Shown: positions 22,402 through 32,789 of the stretch, one piece after another | Numbering within the stretch: position 1 is the first letter of the stretch | Layout: every line of letters starts with the position of its first letter | DNA from: Escherichia phage slur16 | Sequence record: NC_028248.1 | Length of the DNA stretch: 64,000 bases | Strand: one strand, 5' to 3' | The notes under the pieces: model-generated | Database searches by the model: none | What the model was told of the DNA's origin: nothing | Seen by the model: only the letters and a program-made list of their open reading frames with translations | Program-made: the position numbers and the translations under genes

Positions 22402-22805
22402 TGATCAGTCTCCTTCTTGTTAAGTCTGAATACTGCAATAATAGCATTCCCAAGGTGCAGTGTCAAATCATTTCCAAGATACCACAGCATTCCACGGTCA
22501 TCTTTGATGAAAGGGTAGCAATTTGGTGCCTTCTCTTTAATGAAAGGGTGACAATCTGGTGCCTTCCAGACATTGTACACTTTCCCAACCTGAAAGAAAT
22601 CAGGCCCTGTTGGGATTTTAGTGCCTGGCCACACTTGAGATACCTGAACACACTCCACCTGCATAATAACAGGGATAGTCATGGATGTAAATGTTTTTGT
22701 TGGTTCTACTACCATAAAAGTCTCCTCTTTGCTCAACAACACTTCCATGTGTTGATAGTTTACATTAGTGACAATCACCCCAATTACGACCACACAGGTA
22801 TTCAC
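22398..22805 (-). CDS. hypothetical protein (135 aa; start uncertain)
   Basis: Track start overlaps the polymerase 3-prime end by 40 nt; internal Met at 22748 is an alternative. Confidence 0.4.
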   Translation of the reverse strand: MNTCVVVIGVIVTNVNYQHMEVLLSKEETFMVVEPTKTFTSMTIPVIMQVECVQVSQVWPGTKIPTGPDFFQVGKVYNVWKAPDCHPFIKEKAPNCYPFIKDDRGMLWYLGNDLTLHLGNAIIAVFRLNKKETDQ

Positions 22806-25542
22806 CTGTGATCTGGAACGGGACGCCCATCATTTTAGAAGCTTGCCAGAAGCAATGCACCACCATTTCACCCACAGGGCTCCAGATAAGTTCAAGCTTT
22901 CCGTCATCGTTCAGGATAGGATCGTACACCGTGTTTCCGTCTCTGTCAACCACTTCGTTTCCGTCCTCATCCTTGCGTGCCTTTTTGTACTTATGACCGT
23001 CGAACACATGAAGTTTGGCCTCCTGCTCTGCCTTAAATGCTTCCAGTTCTTCGATTGTGTCGAAGGTGTACACAGTCTTATACTTCGGTGTGTCAGGGAC
23101 TTGAAGCTGATATTCGTCATGGTAATAGATAATACGACGAACACCTTCATCGTACCACCCACGCTTCACCATTTGATGGTGCATGAGTATCCCAACTAAG
23201 TCACACAACGATGCGCCGCCATTTTGTTGGTATGCATTAAGTAAAGAGTGTTTAGATCGGGTCCAGATAGCATGACCATCAAAAGAGTAGATAAACTTCT
23301 TACCCGTTGCTTCCCAGAATTTCTCCAGATCTTCTTTACGCCCCTTAAGACCAGGGTTGGCATCCCAGAGTGCATCGATTACCCTTTGTCCCAACTCTGG
23401 AGAGATGTCCAGCATATCTGCAACTTTATCTTTTTGTGCCCCATACATAACCCCATACGTGATAGGTTTACCGTCGTTACGAGACACCTCTCTACCTGCT
23501 ACTTTTGTATATGCCTCAGCATTGTTTTGGTGTGCGTCCCCGTTACTTACAACATCGTAATACAGGCCGTTGTCGAACTCAAAGGCACCCCAAGCCCCGA
23601 TAAGCTGCTCTAAGTTGGACCCGTCAATACCGATCTCAAAGTATCCTGGAGGAACACCCCACAGACTACGCATCTCTTTACCCATAACCACTTTAGGAGA
23701 TGGTTTAGGCATGTTTGCACAAATACTGTGTTTCTGTCGGGAAGTGTTTGTTAATCCAGAACTTTTAGCAGGAAGCTTATGGTCAATCTTCAAACGTGGG
23801 TGATTAAGAAGACCAGTATCAACCTTATCCTCCTTGATTGGATCAAGGACCGATCTGCGGTTTCGCAATGATAACCACAAGACGATATCTTTAGCCATCT
23901 CTCCGTTCAATTTTTCAAGATTCGGGCATAGGTGTCCAAACGTATCTTTCAGTTGCGGAGAAGTAATAAGTGCCCTAGCTTTTCTACGTATTTTCCCGAA
24001 TACTTCCTTTTTAATCCTTTCGGAGTTAGGAAAGCTTCGGAACTTGTGCACGGTTGTCTGGAACTTAGCATCAGTTTTGTTCCAGAAGTTGATAATTAGG
24101 TCACAATACTCTGACTCTAAAAGCTCGTCCATATATGCATACACTCGTGCATCAACATCTGCATCAGGTAGAGCTTTCTTCTTGCTGTCTTTAGTTACAT
24201 CCTTAGTTCTCCACATTGTCGGAAGCCAACCAGCACTGATCAGGTATCGCTTAATATCGTCCTGATTGCTGATTTTCATAGGTATCTTGCAGTCAGGCAT
24301 TCGCTTCTGCTGTAGATCACTTATTGCCTGATCCATTAGCTCTTTAGGTAAAGGTTGTGGTGTGGAGGTGCCCTTGATATAGCCCCTCAAGAAATCCGCC
24401 ATCTTATCAGGGTCTTTACAGCCCATCTCTTCACACCATTTTATCCCCATCTTACTGACATCTCCTGTGGAGGTAAATGCTCGCTTAGGAGGAGCTTTGA
24501 ATTCTAAAGCACTCATGTCCACAGGGTAGCCAAGCTTGTCTTTTAACCATTTCCAACCATTATTGGAGATTGTCCCATCCTGGTTAAACGGCTTTTCAGG
24601 GAACTTAGGCCGCTGAGACATTGATAACTCTTTTAAAGGAAGTTGTGGTTCAACACGATCAGCGATCTCTTTCATCCACGCATCGCAGCGGTCACGTAAA
24701 GCAATAGCCCCATCTATGTCGAAATACACACCCTGTCGAGCCTGCAGCTCCATCAGGAAATGCTGCAGCATGCCTCGGCGTAATGCATTCTTCCAGGTAA
24801 TCTTCTTGAATCCTTTAGGCTTCTCTTTGGCAGGGTCATACATAAAGTTCTGCATGTCAGATTTGCCGTAGAATACACCTTTTGATTCCGCTACCAACTC
24901 TTTCCAGAGCAACTCCTGGATGATAACGTCCTCGAACACACGATCCACATATTTCCACAGCGGAAGATCGCGCCAGTCATCAATTTGAACTTTCTGGTTA
25001 CCAAGGGCGTAGCCCCATGCCATAAGGCCGTGAGGACCAACAGGTTGCATTTTCTTAGTAACCGGGTTGAATACAGCGTCCGGACAACCTTTTGGTAAAG
25101 GGCGATCAGGCCACAAGATTCGGCTCATAGCCAACGTATCAAACAGATTAACCTGGTGGTCGTTGATAGTCCCCATGCATTTAGGATCACGGAACATATC
25201 AAAATGAATACCGGATAATCTTTCCATTAGCATAAAGTCATAACTGTAGCAGTTATGGCAGTTCAAAGCTGTTGGTGACCAGTCAGAATTGCCTGTAAGC
25301 CAACCTTCCAACTCCGAAAAATCTGCTATGCGAACTTCAAAATCTTTATAAAGAGTTTTCTTTGCCAGAATGAAGTTCTTAGCCTTTTCTATATCCTCCT
25401 CGGAGTAGTGTGTGCGGTCATTTAGAGGAAGGAACAGCATAAAACGGTTCTTATTCAGCTCTTTAAACAGACCGCAGTGATAATAAAGATCTGGGTCTTC
25501 CAGCAAACCGGATGACTCAAAATCGAAAGACCACATACTCAT
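22765..25542 (-). CDS. DNA polymerase, family A (Pol I-like) with N-terminal 3-prime-5-prime exonuclease
   Basis: Exo motif FDFESSG; motif A IDGSNLEQ; motif B RNDGKPITYGVMYG; motif C YYHDEYQL; 925 aa. Confidence 0.85.
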   Translation of the reverse strand: MSMWSFDFESSGLLEDPDLYYHCGLFKELNKNRFMLFLPLNDRTHYSEEDIEKAKNFILAKKTLYKDFEVRIADFSELEGWLTGNSDWSPTALNCHNCYSYDFMLMERLSGIHFDMFRDPKCMGTINDHQVNLFDTLAMSRILWPDRPLPKGCPDAVFNPVTKKMQPVGPHGLMAWGYALGNQKVQIDDWRDLPLWKYVDRVFEDVIIQELLWKELVAESKGVFYGKSDMQNFMYDPAKEKPKGFKKITWKNALRRGMLQHFLMELQARQGVYFDIDGAIALRDRCDAWMKEIADRVEPQLPLKELSMSQRPKFPEKPFNQDGTISNNGWKWLKDKLGYPVDMSALEFKAPPKRAFTSTGDVSKMGIKWCEEMGCKDPDKMADFLRGYIKGTSTPQPLPKELMDQAISDLQQKRMPDCKIPMKISNQDDIKRYLISAGWLPTMWRTKDVTKDSKKKALPDADVDARVYAYMDELLESEYCDLIINFWNKTDAKFQTTVHKFRSFPNSERIKKEVFGKIRRKARALITSPQLKDTFGHLCPNLEKLNGEMAKDIVLWLSLRNRRSVLDPIKEDKVDTGLLNHPRLKIDHKLPAKSSGLTNTSRQKHSICANMPKPSPKVVMGKEMRSLWGVPPGYFEIGIDGSNLEQLIGAWGAFEFDNGLYYDVVSNGDAHQNNAEAYTKVAGREVSRNDGKPITYGVMYGAQKDKVADMLDISPELGQRVIDALWDANPGLKGRKEDLEKFWEATGKKFIYSFDGHAIWTRSKHSLLNAYQQNGGASLCDLVGILMHHQMVKRGWYDEGVRRIIYYHDEYQLQVPDTPKYKTVYTFDTIEELEAFKAEQEAKLHVFDGHKYKKARKDEDGNEVVDRDGNTVYDPILNDDGKLELIWSPVGEMVVHCFWQASKMMGVPFQITGEYLCGRNWGDCH

Positions 25543-25600: not shown

Positions 25601-27679
25601 TTAAAAAGGCGTTTCATCATCCTCAAAACCAGGGACTGGGTCAGAGGATGGATCATCGTACTGGAGGTCTTCCTGCGTGTCAACAGGCTTAACAGTAGGA
25701 GTTACAACCTTATCAGCCACAACCTTGCCCATAGGTGTTTCTACAACTGCATGCTCCTGATCCTCAAACATAGCCTGAGGTCTCCAAACAACCTCCCCAC
25801 CTTCTCCGTCTGTAAACATTTGCATTTCTTTGTCCCAGTACCAATTACTGGCATCATGGAACTTACCTGTGTGCGGGTCCATAACCAAAGTGTCAGCAAT
25901 ACCTAGAGTTTTTGCTGGACGGTTTTTAAGACCTACCAGACGGACACGTCCACGAGAACGATCCACCATTTCTTCGGCCTCGACACCTATGACTACCCAA
26001 CTCAACTGTTCAAGCCCCGCCGATCCTCGCAAATTCTCTTTTCGCACAGGATACCAGAAAGGTAACGGGTTACCATCCTTGTCCTTAGGAGGCACAATCT
26101 CTGTACGTTTGAGGTGAGCGATCACCAAGATAAACACGTTAAACTGCTTACAAAACGCAGCCAGCTGAGTCATAGCCATGTCCAGTTCTTTTCGCTCATC
26201 CTTAACATTAAGCCCTGAAATTACCATGGACAGGTGATCCAGCACAATATAACGGCAATGGTACAGGCAAACCATTTGCTTAAGCTTGGTAATCAACTCG
26301 TCCACCGGAATAGATCCGAAATGTTTGAACACTTTGATTTTTCCAGCTTTTGCCCATGATTGGTGAATCTCTGCGTGTTCTTGATCAGTTAAAAACTGGC
26401 TAGGATCTTCAACAAACTCTTTAACATCAAACCCTAACTGGTTTGCATACAAGGAGTTAATTGCTTCCTCTGGGTCCTCCTCAAGATGGATCATACATAG
26501 ACGATCATCCTCTTCATAGTCATCAGCCTTCGGGCATGTCGGGTCCATTAGGTATCTTGCAATACAATGTTCCAGTTTTTTAGCTACAGTTGTTTTACCG
26601 CCCCCTGATGGCCCTGTAAGCATTACGAGTGTCCCTTTGTGCAAGCCTTTTAGCATTTTTTGCAGTTTTGGGAACTCTGCGCTGATATCTACCCCGTTGG
26701 AAGTCTTTTTCCGCAAAGACTCGATAGAGAAGTCTTCTAAATCCGACACAGCATCAGGCACATATTTAACAGGGTGCCGGAACATGTTGACAATATCTTC
26801 CAGCTTTTTAGCCTTCAGCATGTCACGGATATCTTTTACCCCGTCAGGGTCATTTACTTCACCAGGGTATTCTACGTGGTAAACGTTATCAGCCATCAAA
26901 AATGCTGCGATATTGTGCGTGGCCTCAACACCTTTAATGACGTGTTTTTGCTTCTCTACCTCGTTAGCTGCATCGTTATCCATTGCCAGCACAACTGTTC
27001 CATAGCTACGGATAAACTTCTCATTGTTTGCAAAAGTATCTACTGCGTTTGCACATCCACAGTTAATTCCAACAAAAGGCAGGCAGGGTTTTCCTGCCAG
27101 ATCACCACCGTTGATAACTGCGTCGATCCCGTCCTGGACCTCTTTAGCCCACTGCTTCACCTTTGCCGGGGCTTTAGCGTTGGTGAGAATCCCTTTTACT
27201 TGTATCTGATATGCAGCCTGCCATGCTGCAATAACATCACCTTCTCCCTCACAAACGTTAATCTGCTTACGGTTGTTGGAAGATGCACACAGCTTTTGAC
27301 CAAACATCTGGGAGTTGGCCTTTACGATGCCAACAACGGAGAAGTGGCCCCTTTGTTCTTTAGGAATAGTCCAGTCACGCTTTTTGAAACCGGACAGATT
27401 TCCGTAGCGGTCGTAATATGGGAAATATGTTGCAGTGACTGTCACACCGTCTTCTTGTGACAATGCTGATCGCACACCAAAATATTGTGCAGCCATCAGA
27501 CCGATATTTTGTTGTGGGACAGGGACAATTTTAGTATTTTCTAAAACAGTCTCTACAGTTTCAACTTCTTTTTCATCACGATAGTCTCGTTTCACACTTC
27601 CCCCACTTTTATACTTAGTTGCTTTCGGGTTTGGCTCACCGAAACGGTTGTATGCAGATGCCATAAATTTACTTCCCAT
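25601..27679 (-). CDS. primase-helicase (TOPRIM primase fused to DnaB-like helicase)
   Basis: TOPRIM-like VCEGEGD and LAMDNDAANE; Walker A GPSGGGKTT; acidic C-terminus …GFEDDETPF. Confidence 0.8.
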   Translation of the reverse strand: MGSKFMASAYNRFGEPNPKATKYKSGGSVKRDYRDEKEVETVETVLENTKIVPVPQQNIGLMAAQYFGVRSALSQEDGVTVTATYFPYYDRYGNLSGFKKRDWTIPKEQRGHFSVVGIVKANSQMFGQKLCASSNNRKQINVCEGEGDVIAAWQAAYQIQVKGILTNAKAPAKVKQWAKEVQDGIDAVINGGDLAGKPCLPFVGINCGCANAVDTFANNEKFIRSYGTVVLAMDNDAANEVEKQKHVIKGVEATHNIAAFLMADNVYHVEYPGEVNDPDGVKDIRDMLKAKKLEDIVNMFRHPVKYVPDAVSDLEDFSIESLRKKTSNGVDISAEFPKLQKMLKGLHKGTLVMLTGPSGGGKTTVAKKLEHCIARYLMDPTCPKADDYEEDDRLCMIHLEEDPEEAINSLYANQLGFDVKEFVEDPSQFLTDQEHAEIHQSWAKAGKIKVFKHFGSIPVDELITKLKQMVCLYHCRYIVLDHLSMVISGLNVKDERKELDMAMTQLAAFCKQFNVFILVIAHLKRTEIVPPKDKDGNPLPFWYPVRKENLRGSAGLEQLSWVVIGVEAEEMVDRSRGRVRLVGLKNRPAKTLGIADTLVMDPHTGKFHDASNWYWDKEMQMFTDGEGGEVVWRPQAMFEDQEHAVVETPMGKVVADKVVTPTVKPVDTQEDLQYDDPSSDPVPGFEDDETPF

Positions 27680-28433
27680 TAATTCTGCTCCTTACTACAG
27701 GCTCGTTTGCTAGGAATACGGCTTTTGCCCAGCCACGTGGTGTGAGGCTTCGAATCATCTTCGTTCTTGCACTCTTTCCACCCAGCTTGGCGTGTTGCAT
27801 GGAATACCCGCTAACCGCGTCAACTATTTGCGGGACAGGTTTTGTGGCTGGGATTATAAATCCATTACCTATCCAGCCGCAAGTTATTTTTGGATAGGCA
27901 TCACGTGGAGCTATAAATTCAGGAAACCATGGGTTTACATCATCTTCCGGTAAATACCCGCCATAATCCGAAGGGTGAAAACGGTAATCAGGTTTGCGCC
28001 ACAGTGTGGACATAACACCCACAGGATTCTCTACATGCCACGGGCAATCGTAAATCTCTCCCAGCTCTTCCGCAACCCGAGCATCCTTTACAGCATTAAT
28101 TTGGATCATGGGGTCCTTAGCCAGTTTTTTCTTAAAATGTGCAGCACCTGATACCGCTAAATGCGTGCACGGAGGAAATGCAAGAATAAAATCTGGAGCC
28201 GGATACATGCAAAAAGTTTCCTGAGGGAACCACGGGTCAATCCAATAGTCCACATAGTGAATGTTGGGATGATCGGTGATCACCTCTGCATAACTGCCGT
28301 GATCAGCGCCTTCTGCATTAAAGCACAGGCACAGGTACCCAGCTTTTGCCCAGTCAATGACTGCACCACCAGACCCGTCAAATAGACTCCACACAACACC
28401 TTTGTGGTAGTGTTCTTTGTAGATAAATTTCAA
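27669..28433 (-). CDS. putative DNA (cytosine-5)-methyltransferase-like protein
   Basis: LFDGSGG (motif I-like), FPPCTHL (PC motif-like), HVENPVG (ENV-like); the track GTG start at 28463 sits inside a terminator hairpin, so TTG at 28433 with GGAGA 7 nt upstream is preferred. Confidence 0.45.
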   Translation of the reverse strand: MKFIYKEHYHKGVVWSLFDGSGGAVIDWAKAGYLCLCFNAEGADHGSYAEVITDHPNIHYVDYWIDPWFPQETFCMYPAPDFILAFPPCTHLAVSGAAHFKKKLAKDPMIQINAVKDARVAEELGEIYDCPWHVENPVGVMSTLWRKPDYRFHPSDYGGYLPEDDVNPWFPEFIAPRDAYPKITCGWIGNGFIIPATKPVPQIVDAVSGYSMQHAKLGGKSARTKMIRSLTPRGWAKAVFLANEPVVRSRINGK

Positions 28434-28456
28434 TTTGCTGTCTCCTAATGCAAAAA

Positions 28457-28478
28457 GCCCCACCCTTTCGGGCAGGGC
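28457..28478 (-). terminator. intrinsic terminator-like hairpin (second copy)
   Basis: Identical to the 17691-17712 hairpin; followed on minus strand by cttttt, then GGAGA and start codon. Confidence 0.5.
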
Positions 28479-28484
28479 CTAGTG

Positions 28485-28967
28485 TTAAACCCGGATACCT
28501 ATTGTATACTCGGTGGATACCAATGTCAAATCTAAATTTAAAATTTCTTGCATCTCATAATATGCGTCCAGGGTTAGATACATTTCCCCATCCTTTTCTG
28601 CATACTTGTCCAAGTGCTTAAGGCATTTCGGATAACTATCGAGTGCAGCTTTCAGACACTCAAATTCTGTGCTGTTAATGAATCCTTCCATCTTAGCTAC
28701 CCGTTCTGGAGTAACGATAGCACTGTAGTGAGATTTAGCTTCCTGAATGCAATGGGTCCAAGCATCAACTTTCTCTTCGAAAAGCCCGAAGAACTTCTTT
28801 TTGGTGAGCTTCAGATTCTTTAAGTGCTTAAGCACTCGGTTGCCGATCACAGCCACATCACGAAACTTAAGGATCACTTTGTCGATATCCTCGCGGCCTA
28901 TTTTCACAAAGCAAGCCTCGCACATTTCAGGAGTGGCATAACCTACTTTCCACATAAAATCTGACAT
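28485..28967 (-). CDS. hypothetical protein (160 aa)
   Basis: Track ORF. Confidence 0.5.
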   Translation of the reverse strand: MSDFMWKVGYATPEMCEACFVKIGREDIDKVILKFRDVAVIGNRVLKHLKNLKLTKKKFFGLFEEKVDAWTHCIQEAKSHYSAIVTPERVAKMEGFINSTEFECLKAALDSYPKCLKHLDKYAEKDGEMYLTLDAYYEMQEILNLDLTLVSTEYTIGIRV

Positions 28968-28979
28968 AACACCCTCTCC

Positions 28980-29375
28980 TTATTCCTGAAAAGCAACGAT
29001 ATCATATGAACTTGCAGATGATCCTGGTGAAGAATGACTCCAGTCTAGGTCATCAGAGTAGTCAGCGTACTGTGCACCACTACGTAGTTTGTATTTTACC
29101 CACTTACCTGGTGCAGGGTTTTCACCACCTTCCCATACTTCCCAGCCTTCTGGCAGGCCGTCCTGGGGGTAGTCATCCACCTCACTAATAATCTTAGGGT
29201 TTGGCACCAAGATCCCTGCAGGCTCTTCCTTCCTGATAAGTGTCCACACAGCGTAGGTGTCTGAGCAGGCGCATGATAGCAAAGTATATCCACTATTCAG
29301 AACTTCTGCAAGCTCTTTCTCAGCATCTTCCAACTTGGTTAAGTGGTATTGGACAATCTTCACATCTGTAATCAT
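28980..29375 (-). CDS. hypothetical protein (131 aa)
   Basis: Track ORF. Confidence 0.5.
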   Translation of the reverse strand: MITDVKIVQYHLTKLEDAEKELAEVLNSGYTLLSCACSDTYAVWTLIRKEEPAGILVPNPKIISEVDDYPQDGLPEGWEVWEGGENPAPGKWVKYKLRSGAQYADYSDDLDWSHSSPGSSASSYDIVAFQE

Positions 29376-29719
29376 CAGAAACCTCCCACTTCTTCGGCAA
29401 ATGCAGCTGCTGTCGTCGCTGCATCAAGATAGGACTCTAGTTCACGGGCTGCACGTTTGTAAATTGAGTGGCGCATATCGTTTGGCAGTTTGTGGAAGTC
29501 CACCTCTTCACCGTTGTGGTAAACATGCACATCAGTGATCTGTCTAAATCCATAATAGTCAACATCAGAATCACGACACTCTGGGTCTGGCAACTGGACA
29601 ACTGCCTGAGCTTCCACAGTGAACATATCGTCAAGTTCAAAATCGATTTCAAAAGTGTATGGTTTATAACGTTTCATCATTTGATTGTACTCTTTATTGA
29701 TCAGACTTATCTTTCGCAA
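29375..29719 (-). CDS. hypothetical protein (114 aa)
   Basis: Track ORF; start overlaps upstream stop. Confidence 0.5.
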   Translation of the reverse strand: MRKISLINKEYNQMMKRYKPYTFEIDFELDDMFTVEAQAVVQLPDPECRDSDVDYYGFRQITDVHVYHNGEEVDFHKLPNDMRHSIYKRAARELESYLDAATTAAAFAEEVGGF

Positions 29720-31019
29720 CTAAGGCCGGGGCAAGTTTGTAATAACGGAAGCCACCACCACCTTGCCAGTTTACAGACTTAGAAATACCACCTTGATCTT
29801 CGCCATCGATCACTTTTTCCAAGCGCGGAATAATATGGGTATGACAATGATCACCTAGCTCGATTGAGATCCAGCGTCTTTTCATCTTATGAGCTACAGC
29901 AGCAGTAGTTCCCGAACCACCGAATGAATCCAATACCAAATCGCCTTCTCGCGTGCACATTTCGAAAATCCGCTTCAAAAGCGCTTCTGGTTTTTTCCCA
30001 TTTTTGAAACTAACGCCGCCTTCATTTGCTATTCCATTCCAACTAATGTCTGTCCAAACATCAGTTATTAGTTCCGCAGGTTGCATCTCACCGTCAATTT
30101 CCAAAAGCCTATTGGAGTAAAAGACCATTTGCCTACCATTTGCGATATAAAATCCTTCAACATCCTCATTTGGATGTACATAAACCTTATCCCTATCTTT
30201 CTTTGACTTCTCGATAGTTTCTTTTCTCTTTATTTTAGCACCACCACCAATTGCAACAGATTGAAATACACGTTCTGCATTATCAATTGCGAATTGTGCT
30301 AATTCATCATCGAATGTATCAGGCAGTTTTTTCTTGGCTTCTTTTGCATCTTTATAGCCATTGGCCTTTGCAAACGCATCGGCAATACCGCACCACGTCC
30401 AATTTTTATAATGGTCATCCGGGTTTAATAGGTATTTGTTATATCCTGTATCATACCCTTTAGGTATATAGATTTTGTTAAGCGGTTTCTGGGTGCGATC
30501 TTTTGCATATACAAGCAAAAAGTTTGCTGTGGAGAAAACTGTGGCTCCTGTTGCCTTAAATCCTGAAGGGGAATTTGTGGTCATCGATATAGTATTTAAC
30601 TGATTTGCACGACCAAAAATCTCGTCCATCAAAACTTTTAAATACGCCATTTCGCAATCATCTAAGTGAACGAATATTACCCCATCATCACTTAGAAGAT
30701 TACGAATTATTTCTAACCTATCCCTCATTAAGCCCAGCCAAATGGAATGCTCCAGGCTATCATCGTAATGCTCAAAAGCCCTCCCGGTATTGAATGGTGG
30801 GTCTATGTAAACACACTTCACTTTGCCTGCATACTCTTGCTCTAGCGCCTTCAATGCTAATAAGTTATCTCCAAAAATCAGTTTATTATCAAAAATATCG
30901 TTTTCGGTCACTTTCTGGCTGTGGTAAGATTTGCTAGAATCTTCTAACAAAATGTGTGGCTCTAACTTTTTGCGCTCGTTTTTACCTATCCAGGTAAGTT
31001 CTAATTTGGTTTTGCTCAT
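29694..31019 (-). CDS. DNA methyltransferase, amino-methyltransferase beta class (N6-adenine or N4-cytosine)
   Basis: VYIDPPF (motif IV) precedes LDSFGGSGTT (motif I); 441 aa. Confidence 0.8.
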   Translation of the reverse strand: MSKTKLELTWIGKNERKKLEPHILLEDSSKSYHSQKVTENDIFDNKLIFGDNLLALKALEQEYAGKVKCVYIDPPFNTGRAFEHYDDSLEHSIWLGLMRDRLEIIRNLLSDDGVIFVHLDDCEMAYLKVLMDEIFGRANQLNTISMTTNSPSGFKATGATVFSTANFLLVYAKDRTQKPLNKIYIPKGYDTGYNKYLLNPDDHYKNWTWCGIADAFAKANGYKDAKEAKKKLPDTFDDELAQFAIDNAERVFQSVAIGGGAKIKRKETIEKSKKDRDKVYVHPNEDVEGFYIANGRQMVFYSNRLLEIDGEMQPAELITDVWTDISWNGIANEGGVSFKNGKKPEALLKRIFEMCTREGDLVLDSFGGSGTTAAVAHKMKRRWISIELGDHCHTHIIPRLEKVIDGEDQGGISKSVNWQGGGGFRYYKLAPALVAKDKSDQ

Positions 31020-31080
31020 CGTTTGGTGCTCTCCTTAGTTTTTTGTGGGGAGGAGGCCTCCCCTTTATACTCACATCTTA

Positions 31081-31422
31081 CTACTCAAGGTCTTCAGAGT
31101 CAAGCTCAAAAAGAATCAAACTGTGCATGCCTGCAGATAGATTAACACACCCTGAAACAATAAGGGTCTGATAGTAAGGTTCAGCACCCTCAATGTCTTC
31201 GTTAAAATCCACAACAAGGTAGTCACCTTTGTTAAAGGTGTATTTGTCCGATGTAAACGCAAAACCTGCCCAGTCCCCTACTGCAGGGTCTTTATCAGTC
31301 ACCTTTGTTAACAGTAGATCTTTTTCACGGGATCTTTTAGTAAAATCGTGAATCACAACATCCTTCTCTTCAGGAGTTGGATTGCCACACACGTAGTTAA
31401 CTATATTTCTCCACAAACTCAT
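31081..31422 (-). CDS. hypothetical protein (113 aa)
   Basis: Track ORF. Confidence 0.5.
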   Translation of the reverse strand: MSLWRNIVNYVCGNPTPEEKDVVIHDFTKRSREKDLLLTKVTDKDPAVGDWAGFAFTSDKYTFNKGDYLVVDFNEDIEGAEPYYQTLIVSGCVNLSAGMHSLILFELDSEDLE

Positions 31423-32789
31423 ACGTCCCCCTCTTCGGCTCTGGTTTCAAAATCTTTCCTGACAATTTTGTCTAAGTCAGGGAATGTTGTATTGTAAAAC
31501 TCTACGACTCGCGGGTCAACAATAATGTCAACTTCTCTTAGTGGACGCAACAAGTTTATTCCTTGTATTGTCTTAACCCGACTCAAAGCAACATACGTCA
31601 TCCCAGGAGAGAAAGCTCCGTTCTTTCCAAGGTCCAGGTTGTAACAATCTAGCGTAAGTCCTTGACTTTTATGAGATGTTACAGCATACCCAGATTTCAG
31701 AGGAAGTTGCCTGTATGACCCAATCACTACCCTCTCTATAAACTTCTCCATCTTCCTTTCTGCAATGTTGTATCTCTGAGATGGCTTATACTCGTTATTC
31801 TCCCACAACCTTTGCTCTATGTCAACCTGTGTTCCATCTTCAAGCTCTACCACCACTGCCTTGTTCTTAAATTTAACAATTGTGGCACGTGTTCCGTTAA
31901 CATAATAAGGTACTTTGTGCGTCGGGTCAACATCGTTGGCGGTTATCATAACTTTCATGCCAATTTTCAACTTCATCTCCTGCTCAACTGGCAGGGTGGA
32001 GGGAAACTTACCCTTCATTTCACCAGTGTATACCTTCTCTGGGGCGTTGATGGCATCATAGAACCTTCTGTTCACTTCCTCTGCTTGTTTGTTGGTGGCG
32101 CAAATTGTGAGAGCATCTGTTGGTACACCACCTTTGTAACAGCGAGCATTAAGTTCTGCTACAACCTCTTTTATGCGACGACCCTCACGAACACAGTTGA
32201 GCATTGTGGCAAATCGAATAGACTCCTGTCGGAACTGATCTATTAGGGCTATGTTGTGGAGGTCAAGCTCTTTCCAAGATTCGGTATAGCAACACAGGTC
32301 CGTATGGTAGAAGTTGAAATAGGCCTCCTTCTCCATAAAAGAGACAACAGGAGGAGCCTGGTAAAAATCGCCAAACAATATGACCTGTATGCCTCCGAAA
32401 GGTTTGTCATTTTTTCGAAGGAAGCGGAGTTTCCTATCCATCTCTATAAACTTATCAGCACGGATCATAGAGATTTCATCGATAATTAGGATGGTAAATG
32501 CCTTGCTTTTCAAAGGCTTTGCTGTTTTTGCCCTTATTGCGGTCCAGTCTGACTCCATGCTCACACCTGCTGCAAGATCGAAGGTTCGGTGTGCTGTTGC
32601 TCCATTAACGTTTAAAGCGGCTACCCCTGTCGGGGCAACCGTTATGCAAGAGTCTCCATACATTGACTGGATCATGTTGATGAGGTACGTCTTCCCACAA
32701 CCTGCGGGTCCTGAAACGAAGACATTCTCACCACTCATGATTGCAACGAGGGCAGCATCTGTGCCTACATCATACTGCCCTTTTTCCAT
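31419..32789 (-). CDS. SF1 helicase, Dda/PIF1/RecD-like
   Basis: Walker A VSGPAGCGKTY; Walker B ILIIDEISMI; 456 aa. Confidence 0.75.
   Translation of the reverse strand: MEKGQYDVGTDAALVAIMSGENVFVSGPAGCGKTYLINMIQSMYGDSCITVAPTGVAALNVNGATAHRTFDLAAGVSMESDWTAIRAKTAKPLKSKAFTILIIDEISMIRADKFIEMDRKLRFLRKNDKPFGGIQVILFGDFYQAPPVVSFMEKEAYFNFYHTDLCCYTESWKELDLHNIALIDQFRQESIRFATMLNCVREGRRIKEVVAELNARCYKGGVPTDALTICATNKQAEEVNRRFYDAINAPEKVYTGEMKGKFPSTLPVEQEMKLKIGMKVMITANDVDPTHKVPYYVNGTRATIVKFKNKAVVVELEDGTQVDIEQRLWENNEYKPSQRYNIAERKMEKFIERVVIGSYRQLPLKSGYAVTSHKSQGLTLDCYNLDLGKNGAFSPGMTYVALSRVKTIQGINLLRPLREVDIIVDPRVVEFYNTTFPDLDKIVRKDFETRAEEGDV

Follow-up and report, generated by a model that had tools for sequence, protein, structure and literature searches.

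The Mod subunit of the type III restriction-modification (R-M) enzyme EcoP15I is built of an N-terminal domain (NTD, residues 14-60), a methyltransferase (MTase) domain (62-262 and 390-516), a domain for target recognition (TRD, 263-384) and a C-terminal domain (CTD, 539-644). It dimerises through the NTD and MTase domains, the Mod2 dimer is a stand-alone methyltransferase, and the CTD of ModA makes extensive contacts with the Res subunit (PMC4490356). It is textbook knowledge that mobile elements use orphan methyltransferases for self-methylation (PMC12707154), a strategy for which that review cites Murphy et al. 2013 under the name 'Trojan horse'. Among C5-cytosine enzymes of phages, phage K42 has a Dcm whose gene measures 711 bp and whose catalytic residues are C82 and E128. 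This Dcm makes 5-methylcytosine (5mC), as measured by liquid chromatography-mass spectrometry, with CCWGG implicated as its site, and it triggers retron Ec86 (bioRxiv 10.1101/2023.08.16.553469). The DNA analysed here is a stretch of 64,000 nucleotides from Escherichia phage slur16 (NC_028248.1), referred to as the window. It carries a type III mod gene lacking the CTD and a compact C5-like methyltransferase gene related to that of K42. The phage probably has in these genes two functional DNA methyltransferases of different origins, with Mod protecting it from one host system.

The two genes belong to different classes, as the first-pass annotation had stated. The motifs were found in both open reading frames (ORFs): LFDGSGG, FPPC and VENP in the C5-like one, and DPPF ahead of FGGSGTT in the beta-class one. 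The distance of about 1.2 kb given there agrees with the 1231-1261 nt measured, the value being set by the start codon chosen, and the flanking primase-helicase and Dda-like helicase were confirmed by matches to PHROG 239 and PHROG 325 (Table 1). Every gene of the methyltransferase stretch is encoded on the minus strand. That the block is transcribed as a whole may be supposed from strand and spacing; a hairpin with a T-run and a promoter-like site separate the C5-like gene from the genes upstream of it. The presence of the two genes is not new, both being annotated in dozens of GenBank records. They are labelled 'Dcm-like C5 cytosine methyltransferase' and 'putative N6 adenine methyltransferase' in the record of Bas51, while other records label Mod as 'type III restriction-modification system methylation subunit' or, wrongly, as 'Modification methylase BamHI'.

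The beta-class gene encodes a type III Mod in which the CTD is missing. YIDPPF at residues 71-76 (DPPF 73-76) is followed by FGGSGTT at 366-372, the beta-class motif order with the recognition domain between the two motifs, and the protein matches Pfam N6_N4_Mtase at 4e-42. The PADLOC model MTase_III (PDLC03636) is matched at 1.5e-205 over profile positions 2-444 of 575, compared with 2-572 for the host protein described below. The best relatives in the PDB by sequence and predicted fold are EcoP15I Mod (4ZCF), H. pylori Mod (6K0W) and Mbo45V Mod (7DSU); by sequence, 6k0w is matched at 1e-28 and EcoP15I Mod at 2e-24, and the best Foldseek match of the predicted model is EcoP15I Mod 4zcf at 8e-20. 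The alignment to EcoP15I Mod extends only to about residue 522 and thus stops before the CTD, so the domain that the phage Mod has lost is the one contacting Res. The protein is therefore a truncated derivative and not a complete Mod. Unlike in type III loci there is no adjacent res gene, the phage neighbours being hypothetical genes and the Dda-like helicase, and unlike the host Mod the phage copy is placed in the replication module of a lytic phage and driven by the ribosome-binding site (RBS) of another gene. Type III Mods hemi-methylate an asymmetric site of 4-6 bp, the product being N6-methyladenine (m6A) or, in one subgroup, N4-methylcytosine (m4C). The DPPF motif does not decide between the two, since DPPY/F is found in characterised type III m4C Mods too (PMC8259958).

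Bacterial homologs of 560-600 amino acids align over the entire phage Mod at 60-96% identity in the database search. The closest is a 567 amino acid Mod of E. coli (P0123; strains LS45 and APEC E16002, WP_213054361), with 96% protein identity over residues 1-439 and about 95% identity between the phage and E. coli genes at the DNA level. The E. coli mod is situated directly upstream of a gene for a 910 amino acid Res (PADLOC REase_III, 8.8e-191), and the pair is part of a defence island whose other products include a DrmD-like SNF2 helicase, AbiD and an AIPR/AbiU protein. Of 5426 complete E. coli genomes, 24 contain the full-length host mod, among them those of avian pathogenic O1:K1:H7 strains and of isolates from cattle. 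The phage gene has a GC content of 0.397 (0.362 at third codon positions) in a window with 0.438. Judged from these alignments, the Mod gene has been captured from an E. coli type III R-M system. It resembles host-derived phage orphan methyltransferases (PMC12707154) in having no nuclease, in being carried by a mobile element and in its relation to a host R-M system; it differs from most orphans, which are described as type II (PMC12707154), in coming from a type III system and in having a defined domain deletion.

Another E. coli allele of this island matches the first with 95-100% identity at either end but with only 25-35% over residues ~160-320, a patch with the appearance of a typical recognition-domain swap. 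In this region the phage Mod is 95-100% identical to the first allele and 25-35% identical to the second. Since its recognition domain follows the first host allele, the phage Mod should recognise the same site as that host enzyme.

Candidates for a named host system were rejected. E. coli NCTC86, the strain of the m4C type III system Eco86II (GAGCC), has no DNA match to the phage Mod, and the Mod of strain B4103-1, whose system EcoB4103II is listed in the literature as GAGCC, has 1040 amino acids, shares only 26% identity and falls under a different PADLOC model. The GAGCC system and the host system of the phage Mod share an upstream DrmD-like SNF2 helicase (70% DNA identity), but as the Mod of the former is a different one, its GAGCC/m4C assignment is not transferable to the phage Mod. 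In the host island the SNF2 helicase is found upstream of the Mod-Res pair with AbiD and AIPR/AbiU in between (L003 3919-14464 / L007), and about 228 further E. coli genomes combine an SNF2 gene of 70% identity with a different type III Mod of 1040 amino acids. The island was also considered as a MADS system, a small helix-turn-helix gene being labelled 'mads1' by NCBI; PADLOC found only mad1 among the island genes, and MAD1 has been described as similar to widespread regulators, so that the MADS reading was rejected. A short Mod form (P0169) is found in a context that is not phage-like.

The insertion site can be read from a phage in which it is empty. In Bas59 EduardKellenberger the hairpin and RBS that lie ahead of Mod in the window are found directly before ATGAAACGTTAT, with the ATG of the conserved 100 amino acid gene, so the Mod cassette is placed exactly on that start codon. 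DNA homology between the phage and E. coli mod genes is clear from the ATG on; upstream of it, the few bases match only in patches. At the other end, an 11-nt deletion after codon 439 shifts the frame of the phage Mod, which continues with KSDQ and then a stop. About 25 homologous, out-of-frame bases follow, and homology ends at the ATGATG that opens the next phage gene. The cassette is bounded by short A-rich ...ATG microhomologies. The downstream ORF was tried as the missing C-terminus of Mod and rejected; only about 12 residues (INKEYN) match, and the rest is the conserved phage gene also found in phages with no Mod.

Mod is present in 84 of 112 Vequintavirus records, while about 28, Bas59 among them, match only the last 43 bases of the query, which are flank. 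Bas51 with Mod and Bas59 with an empty site form a natural pair in the public BASEL collection. There are two types of 3' junction, one with 441 amino acids ending in KDKSDQ (slur12/rV5) and one with 447 amino acids ending in DSEEDLE (FV3/B9-1; L012, L013), and in the latter another hairpin and RBS stand between Mod and the gene that follows. Each type is 94-95% identical to the E. coli gene at the DNA level and the two are 92-93% identical to each other. That both are nearer to the host than to one another suggests more than one acquisition, or recombination with hosts. A metagenomic phage of unrelated origin (contig of Logan SRR16894903, L017 8001-9335) has an 85% identical CTD-less Mod of 444 amino acids that ends at the same boundary, and in the phage collection megablast found no counterpart to the flanks of this contig. 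The contig appears to record an independent capture of the truncated Mod. Next to Mod it has PhoH, ClpP and Dam-like genes, together with an NrdD gene interrupted by homing endonucleases.

Between the phage Mod copies the ratio of non-synonymous to synonymous substitution rates (dN/dS) is 0.06-0.10 at dS 0.14-0.37, with up to 76 synonymous and 21 non-synonymous changes, and all copies compared lack internal stops and have DPPF and FGGSGTT intact. The phage Mod is under purifying selection. Decaying host DNA, captured and inactive, would agree with the loss of about 125 C-terminal residues, with the frameshifting deletion and the few out-of-frame Mod codons that follow it, and with the related phages that match the flank only and thus appear to manage without Mod. 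Such a pseudogene is nevertheless very improbable given the selection and the intact motifs, the coverage of the host protein, which exceeds 78% in none of 89 phage records, and the two junction types and the unrelated phage that all end at the same domain boundary. The gene is furthermore on a good RBS, and the CTD of EcoP15I is outside the dimer interface and the catalytic core (PMC4490356). The pattern suggests that phages at least tolerate the loss of the CTD, and that it is possibly favoured. The truncated protein might instead be mainly a subunit poison that occupies host sites or enters mixed dimers and thereby blocks the assembly of Mod2Res, methylation being secondary; the dimer-forming N-terminal and MTase regions are 93-100% identical to the host protein, and the Res-contacting CTD is missing from every phage copy. 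A main role of this kind is improbable, as a pure decoy does not need the catalytic motifs that are kept by purifying selection, a mixed dimer would still hold one CTD, and no experimental precedent was found in the literature searched. It is likewise unlikely, if less strikingly so, that coliphages repeatedly capture a CTD-less type III Mod because the truncation is adaptive, giving methylation specific to the host site with Res not armed and perhaps also poisoning Mod2Res.

Another explanation is that the methyltransferases act in DNA transactions of the phage itself, such as replication marking, packaging or the control of expression or repair, and not the evasion of restriction. Both genes are in the replication module, the C5 gene overlapping that of the primase/helicase, and the wide distribution of the C5 family, with 1504 phage records in many lineages and retention in the Mod-less Bas59, would suit a housekeeping function; many phage orphan methyltransferases may regulate viral replication cycles according to an EcoSal review (PMC12707154). 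The BASEL results on R-M sensitivity given below would also agree with this explanation. For Mod the fit is poor, with about a quarter of the close relatives lacking the gene, an origin in host restriction and a nearly unchanged TRD, and as an account of both enzymes the explanation is possible but doubtful. Two functional methyltransferases, with protection by Mod from one host system, remain the preferred interpretation, and several observations count against it as well. In the BASEL study the Vequintavirinae were 'exceptionally susceptible' to six R-M systems including two of type III, although the panel was without the cognate system, and in Drexlerviridae no simple link was seen between methyltransferase genes and restriction resistance (PMC8594841). 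No methylation data for the window phage or rV5-like relatives were found in the literature searched, and the rV5 genome paper mentions neither methylation nor the two methyltransferase genes. The CCWGG specificity of K42 Dcm is not transferred to the window enzyme, as a loop differs between the two (see below), and the CTD truncation could be a neutral by-product of the point of recombination. Since the Vequintavirinae are sensitive to R-M in BASEL, any protection must be system-specific. The proposal of the first-pass annotation that the phage modifies its own DNA as an anti-restriction strategy therefore holds in part: it is supported for Mod, by the capture of a type III Mod with the TRD of a host allele and by purifying selection, and not as a general shield. 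An anti-restriction role of Mod is plausible but narrow, being directed at one type III allele in about 0.4% of sequenced E. coli.

According to the preferred interpretation, the gene of a host Mod subunit would have been taken up by illegitimate recombination; it is placed on the start codon of a conserved phage gene and now uses the hairpin and RBS of that gene. The 441 amino acid protein would form a stand-alone Mod2 methyltransferase and methylate one strand of the recognition site of the host system on phage DNA. Progeny would then be immune to the cognate type III enzyme in E. coli strains carrying that system, and the CTD-less Mod would give this protection without recruiting the host Res nuclease.

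The C5-like protein is a member of a widespread phage family of compact Dcm-like C5-cytosine methyltransferases. Its motifs are in the canonical C5 order, with FDGSG at 18-22 (motif I), PPC at 87-89 (motif IV, Cys89) and ENP at 135-137 (motif VI, Glu135), and Cys89 and Glu135-Asn-Pro are invariant among 30 homologs. It matches PHROG 757 'DNA methyltransferase' at 3.4e-87. Searches of Pfam (E <= 0.01, including PF00145 DNA_methylase) and NCBIfam gave no match, and the search of the PDB by sequence gave no significant one. A profile of the 30 homologs found only C5 methyltransferases in the PDB, at an E-value of 0.13, and a precomputed PF00145 match is present on a few homologs. The database contains 3555 relatives of 220-260 amino acids. 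The 1504 phage records with the family include Drexlerviridae, Dhillonvirus, phAPEC8-like and RB49-like phages and Klebsiella siphoviruses, and 115 phage records have the protein at an identity of at least 90%. The gene is kept at the locus in both Vequintavirus genomes checked (slur12 and Bas59). In the nearest relatives outside the rV5 group (P0002 and P0004; locus L018 2501-3262; 79-80% identity) FDGSG is replaced by FDGSE or FNGSD, while PPC and ENP are kept; in these lineages the binding of S-adenosylmethionine may be lost or altered.

The AlphaFold2 model of the C5-like protein has a predicted local distance difference test score (pLDDT) of 87 and a predicted template modelling score (pTM) of 0.88. 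Its best Foldseek matches in the PDB are the catalytic domains of DNMT3A/3B (E 3e-6, probability 1.0), and the top 50 comprise DNMT3A/3B/3C and a prophage DNA methyltransferase, with probabilities of 0.98-1.0 and TM scores of about 0.5. The protein is thus predicted to have a C5 methyltransferase fold of the DNMT3 type. It shares with canonical C5 methyltransferases (PF00145; M.HhaI, M.HaeIII and E. coli Dcm) the order of motifs I, IV and VI, and differs from them in lacking a significant PF00145 match and a large target-recognition domain, being ~70-220 residues shorter than M.HaeIII or Dcm. The large recognition domain is also lacking in the catalytic domain of DNMT3A/3B, the nearest fold.

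Phage K42 is a close relative of KarlJaspers/Bas06. The Dcm-like gene of KarlJaspers has 711 bp, and its protein is 54% identical to the slur12 C5-like protein over the full length (E 2e-86). The window enzyme agrees with the K42/KarlJaspers Dcm, the trigger of retron Ec86/Eco1, in family, in compact size (254 and 236 amino acids, respectively) and in the Cys of PPC and the Glu of ENP. It differs in the loop between motif VI and the C-terminal helices, which is GYSMQH instead of DNPGW, and the second of two lysines mutated in K42 Dcm is an Ile in the window protein. The two loop forms, GYSxQH and DNPGW, divide the C5-like family into two groups. Depletion of CCWGG was considered as a clue to the target and discarded; the window has 130 sites against 111 +/- 9 expected, so the site is not avoided and the count is neutral either way. 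The C5 enzyme would most likely put 5mC on replicating phage DNA. It could guard against a 5mC-sensitive nuclease or serve a function internal to the phage.

The C5-like gene overlaps the primase/helicase gene by 11 nt, and the two are therefore probably translationally coupled. For its start, the first-pass annotation pointed to a GTG inside a terminator hairpin and a TTG with a good RBS 30 nt further in, and the TTG is also the start on which GenBank records and a relative agree. The hairpin (28480-28455) has 11 pairs, seven of them G-C, followed by TTTTT, and the GTG at 28463 is in its 3' arm; AGGAG and then the TTG at 28433 come after the hairpin and T-run. The TTG is already used in the GenBank records of slur12 and Bas51. 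One relative, at 80% protein identity, has a GTG where the window has the TTG, with its own AGGAGG before it and a stop codon just upstream. The ten extra codons are consequently not real. The promoter-like site is ~14 nt upstream of the terminator-like hairpin, after which the RBS and TTG of the C5-like gene follow. Such a promoter directly ahead of a terminator might act in attenuation, the stem might stabilise the 5' end, or the match might be due to chance.

Table 1. Coordinates of the methyltransferase genes, associated elements and neighbouring genes in the window.
Feature	Coordinates	Strand	Remarks
Family A DNA polymerase	22765-25542	-	925 aa, intact
Primase/helicase	25601-27679	-	PHROG 239, 6e-160
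Compact Dcm-like C5-cytosine DNA methyltransferase	27669-28433	-	254 aa from TTG; 27669-28463 from GTG
Spurious 10-codon N-terminal extension from upstream GTG	28434-28463	-	GTG within hairpin; annotations and relative start at TTG-equivalent codon
Terminator-like hairpin with T-run	28455-28480	-	Minimum free energy -24.5 kcal/mol; z-score only -1.6
Sigma-70-like promoter match TTGACA-17-TACAAT	28501-28529	-	11/12 consensus match only; within 3' end of upstream ORF
Three small hypothetical genes (29375-29677 among them)	between C5-like gene and beta-class gene	-	
Conserved phage gene	29375-29677	-	100 aa, PHROG 4240; Mod cassette at start codon
Out-of-frame remnant of Mod codons ~445-452 (INKEYN)	29669-29693	-	DNA alignments; protein ISLINKEYNQMM vs LEVINKEYNPEM
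Type III Mod methyltransferase without CTD	29694-31019	-	441 aa; NTD, MTase core and TRD kept
Intergenic hairpin (GGGGAGGCCTCCTCCCC) and RBS	31020-31080	-	Serve gene 29375-29677 in Mod-less phages; here drive Mod
Hypothetical gene	between beta-class gene and Dda/PIF1-like helicase	-	
Dda/PIF1-like helicase	31419-32789	-	PHROG 325, 3e-111
rIIB and rIIA homologs	beyond Dda/PIF1-like helicase in window order	-	

Over positions 27000-31500 the window has 100% identity with Escherichia phage slur12 (LN881735; Vequintavirus, rV5 group); with dozens of relatives the identity is 97-99.9%. Three small genes on the minus strand (29375-29677, 28980-29375 and 31081-31422) have weak PHROG matches, at 1e-5 to 'DNA methyltransferase' and at 8e-7 and 7e-5 to 'DNA ligase', which may be annotation carry-over. 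The DNA polymerase gene is annotated as two joined pieces in Bas51 WalterGehring (L001 1-1543). A putative homing endonuclease gene adjoins the split gene in this phage, and a homing endonuclease is also found there in EmilHeitz and Phage 203. Between 16 and 39 unannotated 'Campylobacter phage' records (MG0656xx, e.g. MG065672 and MG065661), which list Campylobacter jejuni as host, have 97-98% identity with rV5-like phages of E. coli or contain the C5 methyltransferase family of coliphages, and are probably coliphages that were mislabelled or are contaminants.

What is new here is that the host system of origin of the phage Mod is named, with the recognition domain kept and the nuclease-binding domain lost. 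The assumption, frequent in annotations, that Mod is adenine-specific or BamHI-like is corrected. The relative in K42 shows that such enzymes have a cost, as Dcm methylation can trigger retron defence. Repeated capture of the truncated form for its adaptive value, if true, would amount to an anti-restriction strategy by domain deletion that is specific to type III systems. Phages of the rV5 type are used in phage therapy and in O157 typing, and Mod could explain part of the strain-level differences in host range among them.

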